DNA of 64,000 nucleotides from an uncultured Anaerolineaceae bacterium (GTDB lineage: Bacteria; Chloroflexota; Anaerolineae; Anaerolineales; UBA4823): contig CAYGZL010000151.1 of assembly GCA_964354345.1 (NCBI GenBank), positions 25,869-89,868 of the forward strand, in the 5' to 3' direction. The notes under the pieces were generated by a model. That model saw nothing but the letters and a program-made list of their open reading frames with translations, made no database searches and was not told the origin of the DNA. The first letter of the stretch is position 1. Each line of letters begins with the position of its first letter. The translations under genes and the position numbers were made by a program. Positions 1,976-42,050 of this stretch are shown one piece after another.

Positions 1976-2341
1976 GTGCTCATGCTGAAAGAACAATGGT
2001 TATTCATTGGTCTCTTTCTGGTCCTTGCCACTGTTTTCCCCGGCGTGGCGCTATTAATTCCTCGTTTAATCGCACCTCGAAAACCCAACCGAATAAAATC
2101 TCAAACGTACGAATGCGGTATCGAAACAGTAGGCGATAACTGGGTGCAATTTAAGATCCAATATTACATTTTCGCTTTGGTCTTTTTGATATTTGATGTA
2201 GAGACGGTTTTCCTTTATCCCTGGGCAGTAGCTTTAGGGGTTTTACCAATCTATGCGGTTATAGAAGGTGTGCTGTTCCTGGGCATCCTGTTTGCTGGCC
2301 TGGTCTACGCATGGCGCAAGGGCGCTTTGGAATGGGTCTAA
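1976..2341 (+). CDS. nuoA: NADH-quinone oxidoreductase subunit A
   Basis: A three-TM protein of about 120 aa with NuoA/ND3 motifs YECGIE and FDVETVFLYPWA. The likelier start is ATG 1982, 5 nt after AAGGAG (1971..1976). Confidence 0.9.
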   Translation: MLMLKEQWLFIGLFLVLATVFPGVALLIPRLIAPRKPNRIKSQTYECGIETVGDNWVQFKIQYYIFALVFLIFDVETVFLYPWAVALGVLPIYAVIEGVLFLGILFAGLVYAWRKGALEWV

Positions 2342-2366
2342 GCAGTGGTTAGTACAATTAAGCAGA

Positions 2367-2396
2367 GGCTGAAGGAAATAATTCTTTCAGCCTTTT
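2367..2396 (+). terminator. Intrinsic-terminator-like hairpin between nuoA and nuoH
   Basis: GGCTGAAGGAA-ATAA-TTCTTTCAGCC forms an 11-bp stem with 1 mismatch and a 4-nt loop. It is followed by TTTTAT and ends 24 nt before the nuoH ATG. Confidence 0.45.
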
Positions 2397-2419
2397 ATGT
2401 GTTGTAGAGGAGAGAACTT

Positions 2420-3628
2420 ATGGCTGATCCGGTCAACCTGATCGCAAACTGGTTATCCCAATTATTGCTCAGTTGGGGGTTGGCGCCAGACCTGGTCAAT
2501 TTTATCATGAAAATGATAGGCGTCCTTGTAATTGTAGTGTTTACCCTTGTGGTGGACATATTCCTGGTATGGGTCGAACGAAAAACCGTAGCCCGTTTCC
2601 AGGATCGGCTGGGTCCGAACCGTTTAGGTCCCTATGGGCTGGTGCAACCGATTGCGGATGTAATCAAACTGCTGATTAAAGAAGATATAACACCGATTGG
2701 CGCTGATAAATTTATTTTTAACCTGTCGCCGATCATTGCTTTGGCGACTGTGTTAATGCTTTGGGCAGTTATCCCGTTCGCTCCCACATTATTGGGAACC
2801 GATATTAATGTCGGTATTTTATATATCGTAGCGATTGGGGCGATCAGCACACTGGGCATTATCATGGCCGGATGGGCTTCTAATAACAAATTTGCTCTCC
2901 TGGGAGCCTTCCGAATGGTAGCCCAGATGGTCTCGTATGAAGTCCCAATGGTGATGATCTTATTAGTACCGGTAATATTAGCGCGTTCGATGGGGATCAA
3001 CGATATTGTTAACCAGCAAATGGTATGGTACATCGTTTATGTACCTGTGGCAGCTTTAATTTTCCTGATTACTTCTATAGCAGAAATTGGTCGTGCTCCT
3101 TTCGACCTGGCAGAAGCCGAGTCTGAGATTGTCGCTGGCTTTCATATCGAATATACTGGCATGAAATTCGGGTTGTTTTATGCGGGTGAACTGTTACATG
3201 CGCTGACCATTGGCGCATTGTTCGCCTCGTTATTTCTCGGGGGTTGGCGTGGTCCTTTTGTCGAGCAGGTGCCAATCTTGGGTGTCCTGTACCTGTTCAT
3301 CAAGGCCTTCTTTATATATTGGGTCATTATGTGGATTAAATATTCCCTTCCGCGCATCCGCATTGACCACATGTTGAATTTTAACTGGAAATTCTTAACG
3401 CCTCTGGCGATCGGATTGTTGGTTGTGGTCGCGATCCTGGATAAGCTCTTGCCGAAGAGTCCGGTGGCTATCTATGTCGGTGGAATGTTGCTTGCCAACC
3501 TGGTAATCGGGTGGGTGGCGCTTACTCTCGTACGACGATATGCACGCATCGAACGGAAGCGGGTGGGTGACACTCGTCCGGTGGCCACGCCGACTTCAGG
3601 GGTTAGTGGAACGACCAGTCAGGCATAA
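2420..3628 (+). CDS. nuoH: NADH-quinone oxidoreductase subunit H
   Basis: 402 aa, polytopic. NuoH/ND1 signatures RFQDRLGPNRLGPYGLVQPIADVIKLLIKED and EAESEIVAGFHIEYTGMKF. Strong SD GAGGAG upstream. Confidence 0.95.
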   Translation: MADPVNLIANWLSQLLLSWGLAPDLVNFIMKMIGVLVIVVFTLVVDIFLVWVERKTVARFQDRLGPNRLGPYGLVQPIADVIKLLIKEDITPIGADKFIFNLSPIIALATVLMLWAVIPFAPTLLGTDINVGILYIVAIGAISTLGIIMAGWASNNKFALLGAFRMVAQMVSYEVPMVMILLVPVILARSMGINDIVNQQMVWYIVYVPVAALIFLITSIAEIGRAPFDLAEAESEIVAGFHIEYTGMKFGLFYAGELLHALTIGALFASLFLGGWRGPFVEQVPILGVLYLFIKAFFIYWVIMWIKYSLPRIRIDHMLNFNWKFLTPLAIGLLVVVAILDKLLPKSPVAIYVGGMLLANLVIGWVALTLVRRYARIERKRVGDTRPVATPTSGVSGTTSQA

Positions 3629-3658
3629 TATATCTCGGTTATTGATCCTACACGGAGC

Positions 3659-4174
3659 GTGTTTATGGCCCCTGTCCAAATCTTGTTCATCCTGATCGCA
3701 GCTGCCACATTAGGTACTGCGCTGATGGTCGTGACAGCCCGCAATCTGGTCCATTCAGCTTTGTATCTGGTAGCAACCCTGTTTGGTGTGGCAATTCTAT
3801 TTGTCTTACTCAATGCGGGCTTTTTAGCGATTGCGCAGGTTGTGGTGTATATTGGCGCGATAGCGATCTTAATAATATTTGCGATCATGCTGACTCGCCG
3901 GCTGGCGCAGGACCGTGGTTCACAAATCAATAACAACTGGTTCTGGGCTGCGATCCTGGCGGGTTTGATGTTTGCCGGGTTGGCCTGGATGCTGAATGGT
4001 TGGTCAGGGTTCACCAGCCAGGCAGCGCCCCTCAGCCCGCATGTGGACCAGGTTTCTCAGTTGGGTAAAGCGTTGGTATCTCCTGATGCGTATGTTCTAC
4101 CGTTTGAACTCGCCTCGGTGCTGCTCCTGGCAGCGTTGATTGGGGCGATTGTTATTGCCTGGGAGAAGAAGTAG
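3659..4174 (+). CDS. nuoJ: NADH-quinone oxidoreductase subunit J
   Basis: 171 aa, five predicted TM segments. NuoJ/ND6-type VVYIGAIAILIIFAIML core. GTG at 3659 or ATG at 3665 as start. It follows nuoH after only 30 nt, so there is no room for nuoI. Confidence 0.9.
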   Translation: MFMAPVQILFILIAAATLGTALMVVTARNLVHSALYLVATLFGVAILFVLLNAGFLAIAQVVVYIGAIAILIIFAIMLTRRLAQDRGSQINNNWFWAAILAGLMFAGLAWMLNGWSGFTSQAAPLSPHVDQVSQLGKALVSPDAYVLPFELASVLLLAALIGAIVIAWEKK

Positions 4175-4183
4175 GAGGCGCGC

Positions 4184-4495
4184 ATGATCCCATTATCTTG
4201 GTTCCTGATTTTTTCTGCCGCTTTGTTCAGCATCGGTTTATTCGGCGTGCTGGCACGTAAGAATGCGATCGCTATCTTGATGGGGGTGGAGTTGATGCTG
4301 AACGCGGTGAATATTAACCTGGTTTCATTTTGGCGCTACCAGACTCCCGATCAGAGCATTGCTGGACAAGCCTGGGCGGTGATTGTATTTGCTGTTGCTG
4401 CGGCTGAAGTGGCAGTGGGCCTGGCGTTATTTATCTCGGTTTATCGCCGCCGGAATACTGTAGTGGCGGACGAAATTGATATGCTTAAAATGTAA
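4184..4495 (+). CDS. nuoK: NADH-quinone oxidoreductase subunit K
   Basis: 103 aa, 3 TM. NuoK/ND4L motifs GVELMLNAVNINLV and AAAEVAVGLAL. Confidence 0.9.
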   Translation: MIPLSWFLIFSAALFSIGLFGVLARKNAIAILMGVELMLNAVNINLVSFWRYQTPDQSIAGQAWAVIVFAVAAAEVAVGLALFISVYRRRNTVVADEIDMLKM

Positions 4496-4519
4496 ATTCC
4501 TCGCCCGTGAGGAGAACTT

Positions 4520-6733
4520 ATGGCGACTGAAACGATCATTTGGTTAATCCCCTTTCCGCCTTTACTGGCGTTTTTCTTGATTGTCTTGTTGACCAATCGC
4601 AACAGAGGCATCAGCCATACTTTGGCGATTGGCGCGGCTTTGCTTTCCTGGTTTGGCAGTATGGTTGTCTTTATCCGGGCATTGCAAACCGAGCATCTTG
4701 GCGAGAATCCTTTTGTCGCCTCGATCCCCTGGTTTCCGACAGGAATTTTACCCTCCGGAATAACGACCTGGCTCCAGATTGGCGTGCAAATCGATCCACT
4801 TTCAGCGGTCACGCTCTTTTTCGTTGCCTGGACGGTATTGATGATTTTCATCTATAGTGTCGGATACCACAATTATGGGCAACCTAAAGGCGACCACGAT
4901 CACCCAGGTTTACCTCCGCATGGGGCGACGGTAACGGATGCGCATGGCCATTCTCGCCAGGTGCCTTCGGTCGAGCCCATGTACTCTCGGTTTTTTGCTT
5001 TTATTGGGCTCTTCGCCTTTGGGATGTACCTGCTGGTGGTCTCGGATAATCTACTGACCCTCTTTGTGGGTTGGGAAATTATGGGCTTATGCTCTTACTT
5101 GCTGATCGGCTTTTGGTATGGCAAACCATCTGCCCGCGCCGCTATGATCAAGGCCTTCATCACCACCCGCGTCGGTGATGTATTCATGCTATTAGGCCTG
5201 GCTTACCTTTACTCAGCCACAGGCGCGGTTACTTCGACGGTTGGGACGCTTAACTATCGGGAAATATTTTATTCCGAGCATATGCTTAAGGCGCTGGCAT
5301 CTACCCCTTCAGGCGTGCTGGGTTTATCAGTCGCCGGATTAATTGGGATTTTGTTGTTTATCGGTGTCATCGGCAAGTCAGCGCAATGGCCGCTTCACGT
5401 GTGGTTGCCGGACGCAATGGAAGGACCGACTCCTGTGTCGGCCATGATCCATGCAGCAACCATGGTTTCTGCCGGCGTTTACATGGCCATCCGGATTTTC
5501 CCGCTGTTGTCATACGGCGCAACTGAAGGCCAGATGACTTCACCCATGGTGGTGATGGCTTTTATCGGCGCATTTACTGCTTTGTTTGCTGCGACGATCG
5601 CCCTGGCGCAAAATGATATTAAACGGGTTTTGGCCTATTCAACGATCTCCCAGTTGGGTTACATGATCGCCGCGTTGGGGATCGGTGCGTATGCCGCTGC
5701 CGCGTTCCATCTGTTCACGCATGCCTTCTTTAAAGCTTTACTGTTCTTAGGATCTGGCTCGGTGATCCACGGCATGGAGCATGGCGTTCTACATACCAAC
5801 GCGCATGTTGATCCGCAAAATATGCAGAATATGGGTGGCTTGCGTAAGAAAATGCCGGTCACTTTCTGGACTTTCTTGATTGGTGGCTTTGCCCTGTCTG
5901 GTTTTCCGTTAGTTACAGCCGGATTCTGGTCGAAGGATGAAATCCTGGCGGACGCCTTCGGCAATGGTCATTGGCTGGTTTTTGCTGCCCTGGCGCTTTC
6001 CGCCTTATTAACCGCCTTCTATACCATGCGCCAGATTACCCTCACTTTCCTGGGTGAGCCTCGTACATCAGCCGCCGAACATGCCCGGGAAACACCCTGG
6101 ACAATGACCTTACCTCTGCTTATCCTGGCCGTCTTTGCCATCGCAGCTGGTTGGATTGGCATTCCTGAAGGCCTGACCAATGGAGCAATACCCAATTGGT
6201 TGCACGAGTTTATTGGAGGGACACTTCTAGAGCCTCCGGCTAAGCTTGCATTCAATTATCTACCGATGGTAATCTCGGCAGTGATTGCCCTGACAGGTTT
6301 AGGGTTAGGGTATTGGGTGTACCGGAAGGTAAAGGCTGGCGCGCCTGATCCGCTACAAAAAGCTTTAGGTCCGGTTCATCGAGTGCTGCAAAACAAGTAT
6401 TATTTTGACGAATTGTATAACCTGGTTTTTGTCCGCCCGGCGATCTGGTTCTCCGAAGTCTTTACCTCGATTTGGATGGATCGTAAGGTGATTGATGGTT
6501 TCTTGCATGCTATCGCTGCTTCGGTCTTAGCTCTTGGTAACCTGTTTCGTAATTATATTGACAAACCGATTGTCAATGGATTCGGTGATGCTGTTGGGGA
6601 AAGCACCAAGCGGATGGGTCGCACTTTCCGGGTGATCCAGACTGGAAAAGTGCAGCAATATATGATCATGGCTTTGGTAGCAGTGGCAGCTTTTAGTGTC
6701 TTTTTCTATTATTTATTGGTCTACGCCCGGTAG
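4520..6733 (+). CDS. nuoL: NADH-quinone oxidoreductase subunit L (long form, 737 aa)
   Basis: NuoL/ND5 motifs LFVGWEIMGLCSYLLIGFWY, WLPDAMEGPTPVSAMIHAATMVSAGVY and AYSTISQLGYM. The C-terminal amphipathic helix region YYFDELYN...QTGKVQQY is followed by a final TM. Confidence 0.95.
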   Translation: MATETIIWLIPFPPLLAFFLIVLLTNRNRGISHTLAIGAALLSWFGSMVVFIRALQTEHLGENPFVASIPWFPTGILPSGITTWLQIGVQIDPLSAVTLFFVAWTVLMIFIYSVGYHNYGQPKGDHDHPGLPPHGATVTDAHGHSRQVPSVEPMYSRFFAFIGLFAFGMYLLVVSDNLLTLFVGWEIMGLCSYLLIGFWYGKPSARAAMIKAFITTRVGDVFMLLGLAYLYSATGAVTSTVGTLNYREIFYSEHMLKALASTPSGVLGLSVAGLIGILLFIGVIGKSAQWPLHVWLPDAMEGPTPVSAMIHAATMVSAGVYMAIRIFPLLSYGATEGQMTSPMVVMAFIGAFTALFAATIALAQNDIKRVLAYSTISQLGYMIAALGIGAYAAAAFHLFTHAFFKALLFLGSGSVIHGMEHGVLHTNAHVDPQNMQNMGGLRKKMPVTFWTFLIGGFALSGFPLVTAGFWSKDEILADAFGNGHWLVFAALALSALLTAFYTMRQITLTFLGEPRTSAAEHARETPWTMTLPLLILAVFAIAAGWIGIPEGLTNGAIPNWLHEFIGGTLLEPPAKLAFNYLPMVISAVIALTGLGLGYWVYRKVKAGAPDPLQKALGPVHRVLQNKYYFDELYNLVFVRPAIWFSEVFTSIWMDRKVIDGFLHAIAASVLALGNLFRNYIDKPIVNGFGDAVGESTKRMGRTFRVIQTGKVQQYMIMALVAVAAFSVFFYYLLVYAR

Positions 6734-6754
6734 GCCCGATTGTAGGAGCGAACG

Positions 6755-8317
6755 ATGGATTTCATCCTCCAACACCTGCTTACACTCATTTTGTTTACTC
6801 CTGTTATAGCGGCAGTGATCCTCATTCTTTTGCCCCGCGACCAGGATAACCTGATCCGGTGGACAGCCTTTGTCCTTAGTTTGATCCCCCTTGGGTTATC
6901 TGTGGTGTTATGGTTCCGCTTCATCCCAGATTACCAAGGCTTCCAATTTCAGGAAACATTTGTTTGGTATGCCGCGATTAATTCCTCATTCCATGTGGGC
7001 GTGGATGGCATATCTTTAACGATGGTGCTGCTTACCACCCTATTGACACCCCTGTCAATCCTGGCCTCATTTACTATCAAGGATCGAGTCAAGGCCTACA
7101 TGGTCTTATTCTTCCTGCTCGAGATGGGTATGTTGGGTGTCTTCCTGGCACTCGACCTGTTGATCTTTTTCGTCTTCTGGGAATTCGGTCTGGTACCGAT
7201 GTATTTCCTGATTAACCAATGGGGCAGTGAGAAAGGCGAACGGGAGATCTGGGGTGGGCATAAGGTGCCCGCGCGTATCTATGCCTCCTTTAAATTCATG
7301 ATTTACACCATGGCAGGCTCATTAGGATTGCTTTTAGCCATCCAAATGATCGGGATTACTGCTAAAACCTTTGACATGCTGGAGCTGTTCAAACAGTGGC
7401 CGTCTCTTAGCGGTACGTTGTTAGGTCTGCCGGTGACTACGGTCAAAGCGATCGCTTTCTGGGCCTTTGCGCTTGCCTTTGCCATCAAAGTACCAGTCTG
7501 GCCCTTCCACACCTGGCTTCCTGATGCCCATACCGAAGCTCCGACTGCCGGCTCAATGATCCTGGCAGGTGTGCTATTAAAACTTGGCGCTTATGGTTTT
7601 TTACGGTTGGTCTTACCTCTTTATCCAACGGAGGCAAAGTTTTATGCCGGTGCATTGGCAGTTCTGGCGGTTTTAGCGATTATCTTTGGCGCTTTAGCCT
7701 CTTTTGGGCAAAATGATTTTAAACGGCTGGTGGCTTATTCATCAGTCAACCATATGGGTTTTGTAGTGCTGGGCATCGCAGCAGCTGCTTTTGCGGTCGG
7801 TACAAAAAACGCTGGCGATGCTCAAATTGCACTCAACGGCGCAGTGCTGCAGATGTTTAATCATGGTTTATCCGCGGCAGGCATGTTCTTTCTGGTCGGT
7901 GTGATCTACGAACGCACCCACACGCGTAATTTAAAAGATTTTGGCGGCTTATTTCCGCTGATCCCTATCTATGGTGGCATTTTGATCTTTACTTCGATGG
8001 CCTCGCTCGGCTTGCCAGGCCTGAACGGTTTCGTTTCCGAATTCCTGGTCGTGCGAGGCTCCTGGCCGATCTTCACGTTGTATACCGCTCTGGCAATGAT
8101 TGGCTTATTCTTCACCGGCGCATATATCCTCAAAGCGATCAAAATGGTGTTGCACGGACCAGTGAACGAGCGATGGGTCGGGCAGCTAAGCGAAATTACT
8201 CCGCGCGAGGTCTTCGTGATTGCGCCATTGATGGTATTGATGCTGTGGATTGGCATCTGGCCAACCTGGATTTTGGAAATTATCAATCGTGCAGTGGGTG
8301 CTCTTTTCCTGAGGTGA
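6755..8317 (+). CDS. nuoM: NADH-quinone oxidoreductase subunit M (copy 1)
   Basis: 520 aa. Motifs FFVFWEFGLVPMYFLI, HTWLPDAHTEAPTAGSMILAGVLLKLGAYG and AYSSVNHMGFV. Confidence 0.9.
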   Translation: MDFILQHLLTLILFTPVIAAVILILLPRDQDNLIRWTAFVLSLIPLGLSVVLWFRFIPDYQGFQFQETFVWYAAINSSFHVGVDGISLTMVLLTTLLTPLSILASFTIKDRVKAYMVLFFLLEMGMLGVFLALDLLIFFVFWEFGLVPMYFLINQWGSEKGEREIWGGHKVPARIYASFKFMIYTMAGSLGLLLAIQMIGITAKTFDMLELFKQWPSLSGTLLGLPVTTVKAIAFWAFALAFAIKVPVWPFHTWLPDAHTEAPTAGSMILAGVLLKLGAYGFLRLVLPLYPTEAKFYAGALAVLAVLAIIFGALASFGQNDFKRLVAYSSVNHMGFVVLGIAAAAFAVGTKNAGDAQIALNGAVLQMFNHGLSAAGMFFLVGVIYERTHTRNLKDFGGLFPLIPIYGGILIFTSMASLGLPGLNGFVSEFLVVRGSWPIFTLYTALAMIGLFFTGAYILKAIKMVLHGPVNERWVGQLSEITPREVFVIAPLMVLMLWIGIWPTWILEIINRAVGALFLR

Positions 8318-8320
8318 ACC

Positions 8321-9793
8321 ATGCAATTTCCGATATTGAGCGTGATCGTCTTTACTCCGATTGTTGCCGGGCTGTTAATTTTATTGATCCCGTCTGATCG
8401 TAAAAATGAAGTACGGGTGGCTGCCCTTGCTGCTGCGACAATTACGATGCTGATGTCCTTATGGGTATATTTTTCTTACGATATCGCGGCAGGGGGGTAT
8501 CAGTTTAAGGAGATCTATCCTTGGCTTAAGGCGCTGGGTATTTCATACCATGTCGGTGTGGATGGGATGAATGCCCCTCTTGTCCTGTTGACGGGTGTGG
8601 TGATGTTCACGGGCGTCTTGATCTCTTGGGGCATTGAGGACCGGCCGCGCGAGTTCTTCGCCTTTTTGTTTATCCTGGCGACTGGTGTGTTCGGCGTGTT
8701 CGTCACACTGGATCTGTTCATGCTGTTCTTCTTTTACGAAATCGCAGTCTTCCCAATGTACTTGTTAATCTCAATCTGGGGTTGGAAAGTGACACGCGAA
8801 TATGCAGCGATGAAATTAACCCTCTACCTGTTTATCGGTTCTGTGGTTGCACTGGTTGGGGCGCTGGCGATGTACTTTACGTCCACTCAGAGAACATTCG
8901 ATATGCTCCTGCTAGAGAAGGCAGGCTTTACTTCTCAGTTTCAAATCGCAGTTTTCCCATTTGTCTTCCTGGGTTTCGCAGTTCTCGGTGGCATCTTTCC
9001 ATTTCATAACTGGAGTCCCGATGGCCATGTGGCTGCGCCCACTGCGGTCTCGATGTTCCATGCGGGGGTTTTGATGAAACTGGGTGCATTTGCTGCTTTA
9101 CGTGTGGGTGTCATGTTGCTACCCGAAGGCGCCAGGTTTTGGATGCCTTACGCCATCTTGTTGACATTAGTCAATGTCGTCTATGGTGCGTTTATCGCCA
9201 GCGTTCAAACTGACTTCAAATATGTCATCGGTTTCTCCTCGGTATCGCACATGGGCCTGGTGCTGATGGGTTTTGCCACCCTTAACCAACAAGGCTTGAT
9301 CGGTGCGGGTGTACAGATGTTCTCCCATGGCATCATGACGGCTCTCTTCTTTGCTGTTGTCGGGATGGTGTACGATCAAGCGCACACACGTGAGATCCCA
9401 AAACTGGGTGGTTTCTGGAAAGTAATGCCTGGAGTGGCATTGGCGTTTATTGTCGGTGGCCTGGTTTCGATGGGTATGCCTGGTTTCTCAGGTTTCATCG
9501 CCGAATTCCCTATTTTTCTGGGTTTGTGGCAAAAATACCCATGGATTGCCATCGTTGGGGCGATATCGATTGTGGTAACGGCAGCTTATATTATCCGAGT
9601 TATTGGACGAGTTTTCTTTGGTAAGATGCCAGAAGAATTTGCCCATCATGTCCATGATGTTACTGTATTGGATAAGATCGCCCTGGGGATTCTCTCGGTA
9701 ATCTTGATTGGCCTGGGTGTGTTTCCACGCTTGATGGTTCCCATGGTGGAATCGGGTGTAAAAAATATCATGCGCCTATTGGGAGGTACATAA
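8321..9793 (+). CDS. nuoM: Second NuoM-type antiporter-like subunit (copy 2)
   Basis: 490 aa, starting 3 nt after the copy 1 stop. Motifs FFFYEIAVFPMYLLI, HNWSPDGHVAAPTAVSMFHAGVLMKLGAF and GFSSVSHMGLV. Strongly diverged from copy 1. Confidence 0.85.
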   Translation: MQFPILSVIVFTPIVAGLLILLIPSDRKNEVRVAALAAATITMLMSLWVYFSYDIAAGGYQFKEIYPWLKALGISYHVGVDGMNAPLVLLTGVVMFTGVLISWGIEDRPREFFAFLFILATGVFGVFVTLDLFMLFFFYEIAVFPMYLLISIWGWKVTREYAAMKLTLYLFIGSVVALVGALAMYFTSTQRTFDMLLLEKAGFTSQFQIAVFPFVFLGFAVLGGIFPFHNWSPDGHVAAPTAVSMFHAGVLMKLGAFAALRVGVMLLPEGARFWMPYAILLTLVNVVYGAFIASVQTDFKYVIGFSSVSHMGLVLMGFATLNQQGLIGAGVQMFSHGIMTALFFAVVGMVYDQAHTREIPKLGGFWKVMPGVALAFIVGGLVSMGMPGFSGFIAEFPIFLGLWQKYPWIAIVGAISIVVTAAYIIRVIGRVFFGKMPEEFAHHVHDVTVLDKIALGILSVILIGLGVFPRLMVPMVESGVKNIMRLLGGT

Positions 9794-11251
9794 GTGACTG
9801 GCAATCTCTTTCAATCCTCGATGTTTCTCGCGATTCTGCCTGAAATATTATTAATCATTTTGGGTGGAGTGATCCTCATCGTTGACCTGATCTCTTCAAA
9901 AGAAAAACGAAATGGTCTTGGTTGGGTTGGGGCGATAGGACTGGCAATCATCATCTTGTTGAGTCTGTTTGTAGCCCGACCAGGCGCTGCGGCAGTTGAG
10001 TCTTGGGGTCGAATGATCCGATTTGATTGGTTGTCATTCACCTTCAAAATGCTTTTCCTGTTTGGTGCAGCCATCACGTGTTTGCTAGTGATGGATAATG
10101 AGCGGCTGGGCCAGCGGGGTGAGTTTTATTTACTCCTGTTGGCATCCACCATTGGGATGTGCTTGATGGCGTCCGCTTCCGATTTGATCATGCTGTATCT
10201 TGCGATCGAAACCACTTCTATTCCACTCTATGTATTGGCTGGATTTCTCACGAACGATGACAAGTCGGCAGAAGCCGGCTTTAAGTATCTGCTGTTCGGG
10301 GCATTGACTTCTTCGATCATGTTGTACGGTTTCAGCCTGCTGTATGGCTTTTCTGGGACGACATCTTTATATGATATTGCAGCCAAGGTATCTGCTGGAC
10401 AGGTGGGTTTGGCGTTACTGGGCAGCCTGGTGCTCATCTTGATTGGTTTTGGTTTCAAGATTTCGGCGGTGCCCTTCCATTTTTGGGCGCCGGATGTTTA
10501 TGAGGGTGCACCGACACCCGTGGCAGGTTTTCTATCCACAGCATCGAAGGCGGCTGGTTTTGCTGTCCTTTTGCGGTTTTTCACAGTTGTTTTTCAAGAT
10601 AATGCGATTGTTGTGCAATGGGGAGCAATTTTAGCGGCTCTCTCAGTGGCTACGATGACATTGGGGAACCTGCTGGCTCTGACGCAGAAGAATATTAAAC
10701 GAATGCTGGCATATTCTTCGATCGCACATGCTGGTTATGCATTGATTGGTGTGGTGGCGCTGTCTGCAGATGGTCTATCCAGTACTATTTTTTATCTGAT
10801 CGCCTATATGTTGACGAACCTGGCTGCTTTTGGCGCCGTGGCCGTGGTAGGACGGCTGATCGGCTCGGATGATATGACGGCCTATCACGGTCTAAGCCGC
10901 CGATCTCCTGGTCTGGCATTGATATTACTGGTTGCCTTACTCTCACTATCTGGGATGCCGCCTCTGGGGGGATTTATCATCAAGTTCCTGGTATTTGCTG
11001 CGGCAGTGAAAGCGAATCTGATCTGGCTGGCAGTGGTGGGTGTGTTGAATTCAATTATCGGCTTATATTACTATATGACAGTGCTCAAGTATGTGTACCT
11101 GTACCGGGCTGAAGGTGATGAACAACCTTTGGCAATCCCCCGCCCGTCAGCGTTGGCTTTAATCATCCTTGTATTCGGGATCATTTTAATCGGTACAGTT
11201 TTCTCACCCTGGTATGGCTGGGTAACCAACGCGGCTGCGGCGATTCCTTAA
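9794..11251 (+). CDS. nuoN: NADH-quinone oxidoreductase subunit N
   Basis: 485 aa, with a GTG start abutting the preceding stop. NuoN/ND2 motifs FHFWAPDVYEGAPTPVAGFLSTASKAAGF and LAYSSIAHAGY. Confidence 0.9.
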   Translation: MTGNLFQSSMFLAILPEILLIILGGVILIVDLISSKEKRNGLGWVGAIGLAIIILLSLFVARPGAAAVESWGRMIRFDWLSFTFKMLFLFGAAITCLLVMDNERLGQRGEFYLLLLASTIGMCLMASASDLIMLYLAIETTSIPLYVLAGFLTNDDKSAEAGFKYLLFGALTSSIMLYGFSLLYGFSGTTSLYDIAAKVSAGQVGLALLGSLVLILIGFGFKISAVPFHFWAPDVYEGAPTPVAGFLSTASKAAGFAVLLRFFTVVFQDNAIVVQWGAILAALSVATMTLGNLLALTQKNIKRMLAYSSIAHAGYALIGVVALSADGLSSTIFYLIAYMLTNLAAFGAVAVVGRLIGSDDMTAYHGLSRRSPGLALILLVALLSLSGMPPLGGFIIKFLVFAAAVKANLIWLAVVGVLNSIIGLYYYMTVLKYVYLYRAEGDEQPLAIPRPSALALIILVFGIILIGTVFSPWYGWVTNAAAAIP

Positions 11252-11311: not shown

Positions 11312-11614
11312 ATGGAACCGACTGGTAACCAGCCAGGTAGAAAAAGTGTGTCTGCTTCCCTTAGCGTGGCTATAGGCGCAGTAGTCGGGCAGGTCGGCTG
11401 CCTGACTTTATTAATTGTCCTGGCAGCTTTGTTCGGTGGGTTATGGATGGATAAACTGTTCGGCACCAAACCATTGATCACCATTGGCTTGATGATCGCA
11501 AGTATACCAATCACATTATTCCTGATGTTCTGGGTAGTTCGTAGAGCGACTACCCGAATACAAGCTACAATGCAGGCTAAACCCGGTCAGCAACCTGGAG
11601 GAGACCAGCAGTGA
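11312..11614 (+). CDS. Small two-TM protein, AtpZ/AtpI-like (ATP synthase operon leader gene)
   Basis: 100 aa. The hydrophobic hairpin LFGGLWMDKLFGTKPLITIGLMIASIPITLF resembles the AtpZ family (from memory). Its stop overlaps the atpB start by 4 nt. Confidence 0.55.
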   Translation: MEPTGNQPGRKSVSASLSVAIGAVVGQVGCLTLLIVLAALFGGLWMDKLFGTKPLITIGLMIASIPITLFLMFWVVRRATTRIQATMQAKPGQQPGGDQQ

Positions 11615-12594
11615 AAAGGTTTCGGATTTTCGGGATAGAGATTAAAAATCGTTATTTAGTGCTCATAATTATCGTGTTAGCCTTCCTGGGGGCGCGGGCG
11701 TTTGCGCCAGTTCTTCCCCATATTCAACTTCCGGCTGAAGCCTATACGCCAGACCATCCGTTATTCACTCTACCAGTGATTGGGGATTTCTACTGGACGA
11801 ATACATTGACCGCCATGGTATTAGCCGACTTAATATTAATCGCCATGGCCTTGACAGTACGGCGCGCAGTCCGGAGTGGTAAATTAGTGCCAACCGGAAT
11901 TGCTGGGGTAATAGAGGCATTGTTGGAGGTTATTTATAATTTAACGGAATCGACTGCTGGTCGTTGGGCTAAGAAAATTTTCCCATATTTTGCCACGATC
12001 ACTCTGCTTGTCCTGGTGGTTAATTGGATGGAGTTAATCCCTGGGGTTGACAGTATCGGTCTGATTCATCAAGCAAAGAAAGAGGGTCATGCGATTCAAG
12101 AGCTCGTGCCAGGTGTCCTGACTACGATTACTGGCGCCCAAGGCGAGTTCAACGTGATTCCGTTTGTACGCGTACTTTCGACTGATTTGAATTTCACAGT
12201 CGCTCTCGCCTTGATTTCCGTTGTCATGACGCAGGTTTTCGGTGTACAGTCCCTCGGTTCAAAGTATTTTACGAAATTCATTAATGTTGGTGGTGTCTTT
12301 AAACGTCCAATTTTTGGCGTCATTGATTTTGGCGTGGGATTATTAGAGTTGGTTTCAGAAATTTCGAAACTACTCTCATTTTCCTTCCGGTTGTTTGGCA
12401 ATATCTTCGCTGGATCAGTACTGTTATTTGTGATCGGTACCTTGGTACCGGTTTTTGCACAATCGGTTTTCTTGCTTTTAGAGTTCTTTGTGGGATTAAT
12501 TCAGGCGGTCGTTTTTGGCATGCTCACGATGGTGTTCATGTCGCAGGCGACGGCTGGTCACGGCGAGCAGGGCGAACACGCTGAAGCTCATTAA
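11611..12594 (+). CDS. atpB: F-type ATP synthase Fo subunit a
   Basis: 327 aa, polytopic. Contains the essential-arginine motif SFSFRLFGNIFAG and the C-terminal LIQAVVFGMLTMVF. Confidence 0.9.
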   Translation: MKRFRIFGIEIKNRYLVLIIIVLAFLGARAFAPVLPHIQLPAEAYTPDHPLFTLPVIGDFYWTNTLTAMVLADLILIAMALTVRRAVRSGKLVPTGIAGVIEALLEVIYNLTESTAGRWAKKIFPYFATITLLVLVVNWMELIPGVDSIGLIHQAKKEGHAIQELVPGVLTTITGAQGEFNVIPFVRVLSTDLNFTVALALISVVMTQVFGVQSLGSKYFTKFINVGGVFKRPIFGVIDFGVGLLELVSEISKLLSFSFRLFGNIFAGSVLLFVIGTLVPVFAQSVFLLLEFFVGLIQAVVFGMLTMVFMSQATAGHGEQGEHAEAH

Positions 12595-12645: not shown

Positions 12646-12873
12646 ATGGATGTCGCAGCAGCAAGACTCATCGGAGCGGGTTTGGCGATGATCGGTACGA
12701 TTGGCGCAGGTTTGGGGATTGGTGTGCTGGTAAATGGCGCAGTTCAGGGCATTGCCCGCAATCCCGATGCAAGTAGTAATGTCCAGACGAACATGATCCT
12801 GGGGATCGCTTTCGCCGAGGCAGTTGCGATTTACTGCCTGGTGGTTGCGCTTCTGATCCTCTTTGTCGGCTAA
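12646..12873 (+). CDS. atpE: F-type ATP synthase Fo subunit c
   Basis: 75 aa helical hairpin with a glycine-rich helix 1 (GAGLAMIGTIGAGLGIG). The ion-binding carboxylate sits in IAFAEAVAIY. Confidence 0.9.
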   Translation: MDVAAARLIGAGLAMIGTIGAGLGIGVLVNGAVQGIARNPDASSNVQTNMILGIAFAEAVAIYCLVVALLILFVG

Positions 12874-12917: not shown

Positions 12918-13655
12918 TTGGAACAACTTGGCCTAAACTTGGGATACCTGCTGGTGCAGGTTTTCAACTTTTTGATTATTTTTTTAGTCCTACGCGCCTG
13001 GGTGTTTGGCCCAATCATGGGTTTGCTGGAGAAACGGCGCCAGACTATCGCTCAAGGCCTGAAAGATGCTCAAACCGCTGCCGAAGCGCGCGCGAATGCA
13101 GAAAAAGACGCACGTGAAATCCTGGCTAAAGCGCAGGTTGAGGCTGCCCAAAAAGTAAAAGAGGCAACTGAACGCGCCGAGGCCGCAGGTCGCGAAGTGA
13201 TGGCGCGCGTCGAAGCTGAAGCTACAAAGGCGCGAGAGGCTGCCCTGGCTGAAGCCGCGCTCGAACGGGAGCGTATCCTGGGTGAATTACGCGGCCAGGT
13301 GGCGGCTTTGTCAATCGCCGCGGCGCAGAAACTGGTCGGCGAGTCGCTAGATGAGCAGCGTCAACACGCTTTGCTGCAGGAGTTTTTCTCAGGCGTTAAG
13401 TCTGGTCGAGTGGTTGTCCTGGAAGGGGCAAGTTTGAGTGGTGCGACGGCGGAAATTACCAGTGCGTTGCCATTGACAGCGGCAGAAAAAGATAGTGTTC
13501 GACAGGATGTCTTATCGAAAATTGGTAGCCAGGCGACAGTGACTTTCCGTGTTGATCCCACCATTCTGGGCGGTTTGGTGATCCGGGTCGGCGATAAGGT
13601 ACTGGATGGATCGGTCTCCGGTCAGTTGGAAAGTTTACGCCAAAACCTGCGTTAA
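12918..13655 (+). CDS. atpF: ATP synthase subunit b fused to a delta (OSCP) C-terminal domain
   Basis: TTG start after AGGAGG. Residues 1 to ~155 form a typical b subunit: an N-terminal TM (LLVQVFNFLIIFLVL) and a long Ala/Glu/Arg-rich helix. Residues ~160..245 match the delta C-terminal domain consensus (AEITSALPLT..VTFRVDPTILGGLVIRVGDKVLDGSVSGQLESLRQNL). No delta N-terminal domain is recognisable. Confidence 0.8.
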   Translation: MEQLGLNLGYLLVQVFNFLIIFLVLRAWVFGPIMGLLEKRRQTIAQGLKDAQTAAEARANAEKDAREILAKAQVEAAQKVKEATERAEAAGREVMARVEAEATKAREAALAEAALERERILGELRGQVAALSIAAAQKLVGESLDEQRQHALLQEFFSGVKSGRVVVLEGASLSGATAEITSALPLTAAEKDSVRQDVLSKIGSQATVTFRVDPTILGGLVIRVGDKVLDGSVSGQLESLRQNLR

Positions 13656-16295: not shown

Positions 16296-17195
16296 TCAGG
16301 CTTTCTTGACCGGTCGTAAGAAGACCAGCCAATAGGCAGCTGCCACCAACACCGCACCACCAATGATATTTCCAATCGTGACCGGAAGTAAATTATTAAT
16401 CAAGAAATTACCCCAGGTGAGTGATTCGTAACTGCCGGCTGTTTTCCCGATCGACTCCCAGAATTTCTGATCAGCAAAGCCTCTTATGAAGAGTCCAATT
16501 GGGATAAAATACATGTTAGCAATGCTGTGTTCAAAGCCAGCCGCGACGAAAGCTGAGATCGGGAAAATAATCGCCGCGATTTTGTCGACAACGCTACGCG
16601 CGCTATAGCACATCCAGACTGCCAGGCAGACTAAGGCGTTGCACAGGATGCCCAGCGCGATCGCCTGCACAAAACCCAGCTCGACTTTGTTATTCGCGAT
16701 AGTTAGCGCAGTTAAGCCAACGCTGCCCGCACCCTGGGTGTACTGTTTTCCCAGGAATATCAACAGAGCGGTGCCAATCGAGCCGACAAAATTCCCAAAA
16801 TAAACGATCAACCAGTTGCGGAGCAAGGCCATGGTTTTAACTTTTCCACTCGCCCAGGCCATCACAATCAGGTTGTTACCGGTGAATAATTCTGCCCCAC
16901 CGACAACCACCAGGATCAAGCCCAGGCAGAAGACCAGACCCGCCAACAGTCGGGTGACACCGTAGGGTAGGCCAGTGTTATATGCTAATGTTAATTTGTC
17001 TGGGCCAAAAGTTGCCATACTACCCGCCAGGACAGTAGTAGCAAAGATCGCCCCCAGGGCGATGAAAGCTCCCGCCAGGATTGCCAGGGCGAACATGGTT
17101 AGAAACGGCATTTCGGCTTTGCGGACGCCGATATTTTCAGCGCGCGCCGCCATCTCGGATGGAAGCAAGGCATCAATGTGGATTTCAGTGGACAT
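16296..17195 (-). CDS. Formate/nitrite transporter (FNT) family channel
   Basis: 299 aa, 6 TM. FNT motifs LLAGLVFCLGLILVVVGGAELFTGNN and GFEHSIANMYFIP. Confidence 0.85.
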   Translation of the reverse strand: MSTEIHIDALLPSEMAARAENIGVRKAEMPFLTMFALAILAGAFIALGAIFATTVLAGSMATFGPDKLTLAYNTGLPYGVTRLLAGLVFCLGLILVVVGGAELFTGNNLIVMAWASGKVKTMALLRNWLIVYFGNFVGSIGTALLIFLGKQYTQGAGSVGLTALTIANNKVELGFVQAIALGILCNALVCLAVWMCYSARSVVDKIAAIIFPISAFVAAGFEHSIANMYFIPIGLFIRGFADQKFWESIGKTAGSYESLTWGNFLINNLLPVTIGNIIGGAVLVAAAYWLVFLRPVKKA

Positions 17196-40208: not shown

Positions 40209-42050
40209 TTATTCGGTTTGTCTCACAGGAGGCCACAAATCCTGCGCAGCCCAGGCCAGACCTAACTCGGATAACTTTTCGAATGTTGGGTAACCCGTTA
40301 TCAAATCCCAACCCCGCGCGATATAGTAAGCATCGAGCATCGCCGGAAAATCAATTTTGGTATCCTTGTCACCCAAGGGATTATCCTTCCTGGGTCGTAG
40401 TAATGGCTTAGGTAGCGTATCATTGGCACGGGTCAGTCCTAGGCGGTTATTAATGACTCGTTTCAGGTTCCAGCCCCGTTCACCACATTTCAAGAAGTCC
40501 ATGAGGTCCTTGTTAAAACCACACGCCAGGTTCACCAATTCGGCAATGTTCTCGGGTGGTACATTGGCAAACAAACATATCACGAGCGCATTATTGAGCG
40601 TGCGCCAATCTTGGTGGCGAGCGACGTTGGCAGCCTTTTCGGCACCACCCAGGCGAGGGTAGAGTTGTAACCCCAGGCTGCTTTCCACCTGACCAATATC
40701 TGCAAGAAAATAGTCCGATTGGTTATGACAACCGCCGCGGGGAGAAGTAGCATAAACTAACGCCATACCTGTCGCACCGCGCGGATCATGGTATGCGATT
40801 TCCAGGTTGTTTACCTGGACAGCTTCCTCAGGTGCGCCAAAGTGCTTTGCCAGGGCACGGGCTCCTTGTGCCAGGTAGTTGCCGATGCCTTCGCCGCGCA
40901 CCGTTTGCTGGATGAGGGGGGCAACCACCTCTTCCTTGCCCCATTCCAACACCAATCCACTGGTATCTGCTGGTGTGATTACGCCTATCTCGTAGAGACG
41001 AAATGCCAGGCCAATGACATTGCTCATACTGATGCTATCTAAACCATATCGATCGCACATCTCGCCCAGGTGGGTGGCCAGGATCGCATTGTTCAAGCCC
41101 AGGTTGGGGCCGAACCCCATTAGAGTTTCGTATTCTGGGCCTTTACGCCGGACGCCATCTTCCAAAGTGACAACTCGTCCGCAAGCGATAACACAAGCAT
41201 GGCAGGCGCTAATACCAGTTAAGATGGTTTCTTTCACAGCTGCGCCGGAAATGTGTAATTCCTCTTCAACACCACCCTCCTGGAAGTATCTTTTGGGCAT
41301 CTCACCCAGGTAGTTGAAATACTCTGCAGAACTGGAAGTACCTAACTCGCGCAAAACCAGGCTCTGCGAAGCGGAGCGCAGGGTTCGGTTTATTTCCGAC
41401 CGCCGGCTGCTGAAAGCTGCTGGATCGGCTATGGGTACTTTGCCATGCCCTTGAACTGCGATGGCTTTTAGATTCTTCGAACCCATCAGCGCGCCCATGC
41501 CAGTCCGGCCGGCCACGCGGCCATGATCACATAGCACCAGAGCAAAGGGGATTAATTTCTCCCCAGCCGGTCCGATTGCTGCTACCCGTACTTTACCAGC
41601 TTGGAGCTGTTCTTCCAGGGTGGCCTGGGTTTGGTAGGTGTCCATACCCCAAAGGTGAGAGGCGGACTGTATTTTAACCTTATCATCCTGGATCCAGAGA
41701 TAGACGGGTTCTTCCGCGCGCCCTTCGATCCACACGCCAGTATAACCAGCCGAGCGTAGCTCCGGCCCCCAAAAACCACCACAGTTCGATTCGCCCCACA
41801 GCCTGGTGGCGGGTGAGCGGCCACAAATGACAAATCGCCCCACTGCCGGCCCGGCTGTTCCCGTCAGAGGGCCATTCATGAAGAGAATTGGCGCTTCAGG
41901 CGCCAGGGGATCTATATCAACTTGGATATGGCGATATAAGAAGCGAGCTGCCAGCGAGGCTCCACCCAGGTAATCTTCTACCCAATCGGACGGGATATCC
42001 ATCTGGTCAATCGTTAATGTGGTTAAATTTATCTTCAGAATAGGCTGCAT
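40209..42050 (-). CDS. Aldehyde:ferredoxin oxidoreductase family (tungsto/molybdopterin enzyme)
   Basis: 613 aa. The N-terminal ILKINLTTLTI...YLGGASLAARFLY is AOR-like. Contains cysteines spaced as expected for a [4Fe-4S] cluster. Confidence 0.9.
   Translation of the reverse strand: MQPILKINLTTLTIDQMDIPSDWVEDYLGGASLAARFLYRHIQVDIDPLAPEAPILFMNGPLTGTAGPAVGRFVICGRSPATRLWGESNCGGFWGPELRSAGYTGVWIEGRAEEPVYLWIQDDKVKIQSASHLWGMDTYQTQATLEEQLQAGKVRVAAIGPAGEKLIPFALVLCDHGRVAGRTGMGALMGSKNLKAIAVQGHGKVPIADPAAFSSRRSEINRTLRSASQSLVLRELGTSSSAEYFNYLGEMPKRYFQEGGVEEELHISGAAVKETILTGISACHACVIACGRVVTLEDGVRRKGPEYETLMGFGPNLGLNNAILATHLGEMCDRYGLDSISMSNVIGLAFRLYEIGVITPADTSGLVLEWGKEEVVAPLIQQTVRGEGIGNYLAQGARALAKHFGAPEEAVQVNNLEIAYHDPRGATGMALVYATSPRGGCHNQSDYFLADIGQVESSLGLQLYPRLGGAEKAANVARHQDWRTLNNALVICLFANVPPENIAELVNLACGFNKDLMDFLKCGERGWNLKRVINNRLGLTRANDTLPKPLLRPRKDNPLGDKDTKIDFPAMLDAYYIARGWDLITGYPTFEKLSELGLAWAAQDLWPPVRQTE

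Follow-up and report, generated by a model that had tools for sequence, protein, structure and literature searches.

A membrane-arm-only nuo operon with two NuoM genes in an uncultured Anaerolineaceae bacterium: a probable split 2M-type complex I and its lysine-less NuoM lineage

Introduction

Among complex I enzymes with a second NuoM subunit, the 2M class of Chadwick, Hemp, Fischer and Orphan (2018), the closest described counterparts of the locus considered here are found in the Chloroflexi. The passages of PMC7117926 that cite Chadwick et al. state that in this phylum nuoBCDI lies apart from the operon and nuoCD is fused; in the metagenome-assembled genome (MAG) studied there, nuoLMMN is on one contig and nuoBCDI on another, with Anaerolinea thermophila as the reference. 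Here we describe a nuo operon of this kind in a 64,000-nucleotide stretch of DNA from an uncultured Anaerolineaceae bacterium (hereafter the window: contig CAYGZL010000151.1 of assembly GCA_964354345.1, positions 25,869 to 89,868 of the forward strand). It resembles the Anaerolinea thermophila-type 2M system, as relayed in those passages, in the nuoL-M-M-N order and membership of the same class, and probably also in having nuoBCDI encoded apart and nuoCD fused, and comparison by way of these passages brought out no substantive difference between the two. We consider it highly probable that the window contains the membrane-arm operon of an Anaerolineae 2M complex I, the Q-module of which is encoded at a distant three-gene locus.

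Other described or sampled systems share only part of this pattern. Chloroflexus aggregans, of the same phylum, has a transcribed 2M cluster, nuoABCDHJKLMMN (Cagg_1620-1631), whose product has been termed an NADH:menaquinone oxidoreductase (PMC8004040); like the window operon it has two NuoM genes and no nuoEFG in the cluster, but it is contiguous, and the same genome carries a separate canonical operon of 14 genes. The 2M operons of Acidobacteriota and Verrucomicrobiota in our sample (loci L054-L084) agree with the window in having a canonical NuoM next to NuoL, a lysine-less NuoM next to NuoN, an insertion of ~26 residues at the same position of the NuoL lateral helix (HL) and no nuoEFG, but they form one operon that includes B-C-D-I, with C and D separate, and their subunits are 35-50% identical to those of the window. 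In cyanobacteria and chloroplasts the ndh genes are spread over several loci, and a complex I encoded in separate genomic modules therefore has precedent. Their NDH-1, of the 11-subunit type (PMC3144371), likewise has no NuoEFG; it differs in its single NdhD per complex, its oxygenic-specific subunits and its descent from the lineage with the canonical lysine of transmembrane helix (TM) 7. Finally, the Nitrospira 2M enzyme (clade 3) and Complex_I_3 of 'Ca. Manganitrophus' (PMC6606698, PMC9040806) have an extra NuoM and the ~26-aa HL insertion and lack NuoE/F, but belong to another phylum and are said to be of convergent origin, and the Manganitrophus complex differs further in having five pump subunits, with MrpD-like proteins in the place of NuoL.

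A membrane-arm operon of the 2M type

The operon (window 1976-11251) consists of eight open reading frames (ORFs), all on the + strand, in the order nuoA-H-J-K-L-M-M-N, separated by gaps of 78, 30, 9, 24, 21, 3 and 0 nt. Each ORF matches the expected Nuo family in Pfam and NCBIfam, in agreement with an earlier sequence-only reading of the window that had described a cluster of membrane subunits only. A tandem NuoM-family pair sits between nuoL and nuoN: copy 1 (6755..8317; 520 aa) and copy 2 (8321..9793; 490 aa), which are 34.6% identical to each other. Both exceed the 263.8 cutoff of the NuoM model TIGR01972 (NDH_I_M), with 523.7 and 455.8 bits respectively, while the best Mrp or Hyf models reach at most 170 bits and the MrpA/D, Hyf and Mbh-type models all fall far below NuoM. 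In trees both copies are placed inside the NuoM family, copy 1 within canonical NuoM. Thus, by profile scores and trees alike, copy 2 groups with NuoM and not with Mrp, Mbh or Hyf subunits, as the sequence-only reading had supposed.

The adjacent NuoL points in the same direction. The window nuoL (4520..6733; 737 aa; NF005141 NuoL, 607 bits) encodes a long form with an HL insertion at about residues 654-687 (6479..6580), where exactly 26 residues have no counterpart in E. coli NuoL. The HL region measures 81 aa in the window protein, 78-82 aa in all 24 two-M loci and 52-53 aa in all 48 one-M loci; the insertion itself occupies the same alignment position in every two-M locus (24/24) and occurs in none of the one-M loci (0/48). 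In a paper of which Chadwick is a co-author, ~26 additional amino acids in HL, the amphipathic helix of NuoL, are interpreted as accommodating a fourth pump subunit (PMC9040806), and the HL insertion of 2M complex I is also described in PMC6606698. Because the operon encodes two NuoM-family copies, four antiporter-like subunits in all, and a NuoL with a lengthened lateral helix, it is predicted to specify the membrane arm of a 2M-type complex I, the class to which the sequence-only reading had assigned it. In their passages on Chadwick et al., papers citing that work (PMC7117926, PMC9040806, PMC6606698) treat 2M as an additional pumping site.

The remaining subunits also keep key residues when aligned with E. 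coli. NuoA (1976..2341; 121 aa; PF00507, 127.5 bits) has D74/E76 aligned with E. coli D79/E81, NuoJ (3659..4174; 171 aa; PF00499, 141.5 bits) has Y64 aligned with Y59, and NuoK (4184..4495; 103 aa; PF00420, 89 bits) has E36 and E75 aligned with E36/E72. NuoH (2420..3628; 402 aa; PF00146, 375 bits) keeps the charged residues, both acidic and basic, of the quinone/E-channel region. Among the antiporter-like subunits, D220, K286, H311, K405, K472 and D473 of NuoL align with the key E. coli residues, NuoM copy 1 keeps all of E143/K245/K276/E429, and NuoN (9794..11251; 485 aa; TIGR01770, 409 bits) keeps E139/K222/K252/K397. Thus, the channel residues are intact in NuoL, NuoN, NuoK, NuoA, NuoJ, NuoH and NuoM copy 1, and the GluTM5, LysTM7, Lys/HisTM8 and Lys/GluTM12 set is complete in NuoL, NuoN and NuoM copy 1, though not in NuoM copy 2.

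Several further features of these proteins deserve mention. NuoH bears a C-terminal extension of ~60 aa (window 3440-3628), comprising an additional hydrophobic segment and then a charged tail; across the sampled clusters the median length of NuoH is 405 aa in split two-M, 391 aa in contiguous two-M and 360 aa in one-M clusters. The best match of NuoL in the PDB is cyanobacterial NdhF. At residues ~115-148 (window 4862-4963) NuoL also has a His/Pro/Gly-rich loop insertion of ~32 aa, HNYGQPKGDHDHPGLPPHGATVTDAHGHSRQVPSV, which is kept in Anaerolineales-type NuoL and absent from other Anaerolineae orders and all other clades sampled. In the nuoA-nuoH spacer a 14-bp hairpin followed by a T-tract (2364..2395, + strand) has a terminator-like form, with a minimum free energy of -24.2 kcal/mol. 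Its outer stem AGGCTGA/TCAGCC and the TTTT are kept in the closest relatives (L003, L004, L007, L023), in which the inner stem and loop differ; in more distant Anaerolineae the spacer is short and has no hairpin. From its sequence, the element may serve in attenuation, in partial termination or in stabilising the mRNA.

Recurrence of the split layout in Anaerolineae

We searched the 64 kb with the 13 Nuo proteins of E. coli K-12 (locus L001) by tblastn and recovered the eight membrane genes, whereas NuoB, NuoCD, NuoE, NuoF, NuoG and NuoI gave no match better than E=0.28. Pfam scans of the other window ORFs of at least 150 aa likewise revealed neither peripheral-arm nor F1-ATPase genes. By both types of search nuoB/C/D/I/E/F/G are absent from the 64 kb, as the sequence-only reading had stated for nuoE/F/G.

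The layout is not an accident of this contig. The run nuoA-H-J-K-L-M-M-N followed by Fo genes also occurs on contigs assembled by different projects (3.68 Mb, 3.65 Mb, 1.46 Mb and 43 kb), and two independent Logan assemblies in which NuoH is identical to that of the window reproduce the transglutaminase/nuoA/nuoH/nuoJ/nuoK/nuoL junction. The 2341-2420 interval between nuoA and nuoH, which the sequence-only reading had named as the place where a chimeric contig would undo its claim, was seen in at least six independent assemblies, and the layout in ~20 Anaerolineae genomes; base composition is even across the region and the junction. NuoM copy 2 has a 100% public match and hundreds of homologs at 80-84% identity, the latter bearing the names Anaerolineales, Anaerolineae or Chloroflexota, which places the organism in Anaerolineae. 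Runs ERR4334727 and ERR4334728 contain the same strain. The contig is not chimeric at this position.

To place the operon among its relatives, one genome per species was scanned with an alignment of copy-2-like proteins, which yielded 80 uniformly annotated loci falling into three organisations: (i) The split 2M type, A-H-J-K-L-Ma-Mb-N with no B/C/D/I within 10 kb, is found in several orders of Anaerolineae, and among its carriers are a cultured isolate, Leptolinea tardivitalis, and MAGs of Aggregatilineales and Phototrophicaceae with closed chromosomes. (ii) The contiguous 2M type, A-B-C-D-I-H-J-K-L-Ma-Mb-N, is found in Acidobacteriota and in Verrucomicrobiota, including Akkermansia. (iii) A one-M, 11-gene type, A-B-C-D-H-I-J-K-L-M-N without E/F/G, is found in Dehalococcoidia, Bacteroidota, Firmicutes and others. 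Removal of the B-C-D-I block from the contiguous 2M order gives the order seen in the window. As for the N-module, no nuoE/F/G gene is present in the window, beside the membrane-arm operons of its relatives or beside the Q-module locus described below; in this the locus agrees with the NuoEFG-less 11-subunit type of Moparthi and Hagerhall (2011; PMC3144371), which is defined by the lack of nuoE/F/G in association with the nuo genes. A single sampled member of the lysine-less clade has N-module-like genes in line: in the one-M locus of a Verrucomicrobiia MAG (L083, DATJWQ010000008.1), nuoD and nuoH are separated by NuoF- and NuoG-like genes.

A stand-alone Q-module locus

Since no non-split lineage lies close to the window, the missing partner was sought with a NuoC+NuoD consensus built from the non-Bacteroidota loci; NuoD of a non-split lineage was dropped as a probe, as NuoH of such lineages is at most 48% identical to that of the window, which is too distant. 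Among the best consensus matches were fused NuoCD proteins of 556-585 aa (PF00329+PF00346) named Anaerolineales, Anaerolineae or Chloroflexi, and a second search started from one fused NuoCD added the cultured Anaerolineae member Bellilinea caldifistulae. The genes around them form a conserved cluster in the order nuoB (~220 aa), fused nuoCD (577-581 aa) and nuoI (~203 aa), with no nuoA/H/J/K/L/M/N within 10 kb. All four N2 cysteines are kept in its NuoB and both 4Fe-4S motifs in its NuoI, and NuoCD keeps the residues aligned with E. coli H224 and Y273, which we take to be quinone ligands. On the basis of these residues, nuoB-nuoCD-nuoI is predicted to be a catalytically intact Q-module without a local membrane partner, complementary to the window operon.

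The surroundings of this locus are also conserved. Downstream of nuoI there usually follows a protein of 106-109 aa with a CxxC...CxxC pattern, then an Mrp/ApbC-type Fe-S carrier, PSP1, PIG-L and an M20 peptidase, with a 2-oxoacid:ferredoxin oxidoreductase (POR) a few kb beyond the cluster. The CxxC...CxxC protein (L089 12397-12726; L090 10005-10334; L094 12393-12713) has no Pfam match and is a candidate accessory or assembly factor. In one closed Anaerolineales genome of 5.35 Mb (L088; CP070811.1, 1,262,974-1,284,644) nuoCD stands alone, with a 28-aa NuoB-like fragment upstream and no adjacent nuoI; thus, the peripheral-arm genes can fragment further.

In one respect these results go against the sequence-only reading, which had taken the separation of the arm from any Q-module to be undescribed: it was already relayed for Chloroflexi in the passages of PMC7117926 noted above, and the matching stand-alone nuoB-nuoCD-nuoI is present in Anaerolineae. 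The split layout is real but ordinary for Anaerolineae, the separation from the Q-module being already known and the norm of the lineage; as it has been published for Chloroflexi, the window adds one more example.

NuoM copy 2 belongs to a lysine-less lineage

The sequence-only reading had held that both NuoM copies keep the key motifs. The three motifs that it quoted are indeed present in both, but copy 2 has no TM7 lysine: the position aligned with E. coli NuoM K234 is Leu222 (codon at 8984..8986, + strand), giving the signature E140/L222/K253/E395. In the alignment copy 2 keeps GluTM5, LysTM8, GluTM12 and the conserved histidines. Across 27 orthologs of copy 2, Leu222 never varies. An exhaustive search of 1.84 billion representatives gave 123 full-length relatives, 30 of which lack the TM7 lysine and form a single clade that excludes NuoM copy 1 and E. 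coli NuoM. The genome loci give the same picture: this position is L, I, F or M in 84/84 copy-2-like genes and Lys in 32/32 copy-1-like genes. The TM7/TM5 pair is among the sites that appear minimally necessary for coupling (Sazanov review, PMC10212512). A compensating conserved charged residue was looked for in the lysine-less clade and none was found. Among solved structures neither a 2M enzyme nor a lysine-less NuoM was found, the best matches being canonical complexes at ~290-390 bits. A literature search, in which the original 2M paper was represented by papers citing it, found no mention of the loss of the TM7 lysine.

The distribution of the two kinds of NuoM suggests which of them was there before. 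Across loci L003-L085, the lysine-less form is the N-proximal NuoM in all 2M clusters sampled, and in the one-M clusters without NuoEFG, which occur in Bacteroidota, Dehalococcoidia, Firmicutes, Planctomycetota and other groups, there is no other NuoM. All copy-1 proteins group together in a neighbour-joining tree, which is not robust at depth. Because the lysine-less NuoM is the only one in the one-M clusters, copy 2 appears, within the limits of a tree that is not robust at depth, to be the NuoM native to a large clade without NuoEFG, and copy 1 a canonical addition. A broader reading is offered only tentatively, and we would not expect it to hold in full: that the loss of the lysine in this deep and very widespread NuoM lineage is functionally meaningful, and that Anaerolineae, Acidobacteriota and Verrucomicrobiota each set, in their 2M enzymes, a lysine-bearing canonical NuoM between the lysine-less one and NuoL. 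In Anaerolineae the membrane arm is in addition joined to Fo genes.

Alternative explanations

An operon that encodes membrane subunits only might in principle be a free-standing Mrp-like cation/proton antiporter working without a Q-module, and its antiporter-like subunits are homologous to those of Mrp, as the secondary matches attest. This account is very improbable: NuoH, NuoA, NuoJ and NuoK are complex-I-specific, and the quinone/E-channel residues are kept; Nuo models outscore Mrp by more than 250 bits; orthologous clusters of other phyla carry B-C-D-I in line; and the orphan nuoB-nuoCD-nuoI locus of Anaerolineae needs a membrane partner. A true Mrp-type antiporter, that is MrpA-G without NuoH and NuoA, was rejected as an identification, Nuo models being the best for all eight genes and both NuoH and NuoA being present. 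We find it harder still to credit that the layout is a product of chimeric assembly, or that it is what is left of a decaying cluster in a genome with a complete canonical nuo operon. The unusual 78-nt gap, with its hairpin at the place where nuoB-D usually lie, would suit either, but the same junction recurs in at least six independent assemblies and ~20 genomes, composition is uniform across it in the window, and the ORFs are intact and highly conserved down to their key residues, with homologs of copy 2 at 80-84% identity.

More substance attaches to a different view of the second NuoM, which we nevertheless consider unlikely: copy 2 might be impaired or differently coupled, the canonical copy 1 then restoring rather than raising pumping, with a yield of ~4 H+/2e-. 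Leu222 in place of a lysine whose TM7/TM5 pair belongs to the minimum site set (PMC10212512), with no compensating conserved charge found, speaks for such a view, as does the clustering of copy 2 with the NuoM of NuoEFG-less complexes that have no second one; copy 1 is canonical and adjoins NuoL. Yet very many one-M complexes, e.g. in Bacteroidota and Dehalococcoidia, have no NuoM but the lysine-less protein, and the strong conservation of its remaining key residues (E/K/E and His) argues that it is functional; the papers citing Chadwick et al., in the passages concerned, also read 2M as an additional pumping site. The proposal of a split Anaerolineae 2M complex I has its own points to answer, and four weigh against it. 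Support for the window organism consists of gene sequences; the 2M criteria of Chadwick et al. (2018) are taken from passages of citing papers; the Q-module locus was found neither in the window genome nor on one contig with any membrane-arm operon; and copy 2 is without a TM7 lysine that belongs to the minimum coupling set (PMC10212512), so a fifth pumped proton is not assured.

Predicted enzyme and energetics

In the proposed split 2M complex I, the window operon would supply the membrane arm, while NuoB, the fused NuoCD and NuoI would come from the distant cluster adjoining the Mrp/ApbC-type Fe-S carrier, the two operons together specifying one menaquinone-reducing enzyme. Their pairing in the window genome is a prediction, supported by PMC7117926 and by a survey that reported a full set of complex I subunits in 31 of 55 Anaerolineae MAGs (PMC11748557). 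Quinone would be reduced at the NuoCD/NuoB/NuoH interface and protons translocated through the four antiporter-like subunits, with the ~26-residue-longer NuoL lateral helix predicted to hold the subunits together and to span the extra one. The subunit order is predicted to be L-M1-M2-N, and the stoichiometry would be >4 H+/2e-.

The midpoint potentials of NADH, menaquinone and ferredoxin are -320 mV, -74 mV and -420 to -500 mV, respectively. Calculated from these textbook values, transfer from NADH to menaquinone releases ~0.49 eV per electron pair, equivalent to ~2.5-3.3 H+ at a proton-motive force of 150-200 mV, and transfer from ferredoxin to menaquinone 0.69-0.85 eV, or ~3.5-5.7 H+. As the yield from NADH covers only ~2.5-3.3 H+, a five-site menaquinone enzyme fits better with a low-potential donor such as ferredoxin, or with reverse operation, than with NADH. 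A ferredoxin link or reverse electron transport has also been hypothesised for the Nitrospira-type 2M enzyme (PMC6606698). The ferredoxin-linked enzymes encoded nearby, an aldehyde:ferredoxin oxidoreductase (AFOR) in the window and POR near the Q-module, bear on the donor as circumstantial evidence.

Flanking genes and the linkage to ATP synthase Fo

Upstream the operon is flanked by a divergently oriented transglutaminase-like gene and downstream by atp Fo genes, as the sequence-only reading had it. The latter set, all on the + strand, comprises an atpI-like gene for a small membrane protein (11312..11614; a weak PF09527 match, in the same place in relatives), atpB for Fo subunit a (11611..12594; PF00119, 124.6 bits), atpE for the 75-aa subunit c (12646..12873; identified from its translation, which is 93-95% identical to the PF00137-annotated gene of L003 and L093) and an atpF/atpH fusion of b with C-terminal delta (12918..13655; PF00430 + PF00213). 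A Mur ligase gene follows the fusion, and not F1 genes. This Fo-only set (atpI-like, a, c, b-delta fusion) lies directly 3' of nuoN across Anaerolineae orders (loci L003-L014, L017, L023, L028 and L093), and F1 genes never come next. In Anaerolineae, therefore, complex I and ATP synthase have their membrane sectors encoded together in a single conserved block of 12 genes, with their soluble partners encoded elsewhere. No mention of Fo-only ATP synthase genes after nuoN was found in a literature search that knew the original 2M paper through citing papers.

Farther along, on the - strand, the window encodes a FocA-type formate/nitrite transporter (16296-17195) and the AFOR (40209-42050), which fit a ferredoxin-using, fermentative or facultative metabolism.

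Implications

For annotation, these observations carry a caution: a nuo cluster of Anaerolineae that encodes the membrane arm only should not be taken for an incomplete or a novel complex I. Two moderately interesting leads go beyond the original claim, the lysine-less NuoM lineage and the conserved cluster of nuo membrane-arm and atp Fo genes. If the loss of the TM7 lysine is both unreported and functionally meaningful, the 2M enzyme would not be simply three pumps plus one. The lysine-less lineage, which includes abundant gut bacteria, could serve to test current coupling models, and, on the same condition, would amount to a natural experiment on the coupling of antiporter-like subunits.

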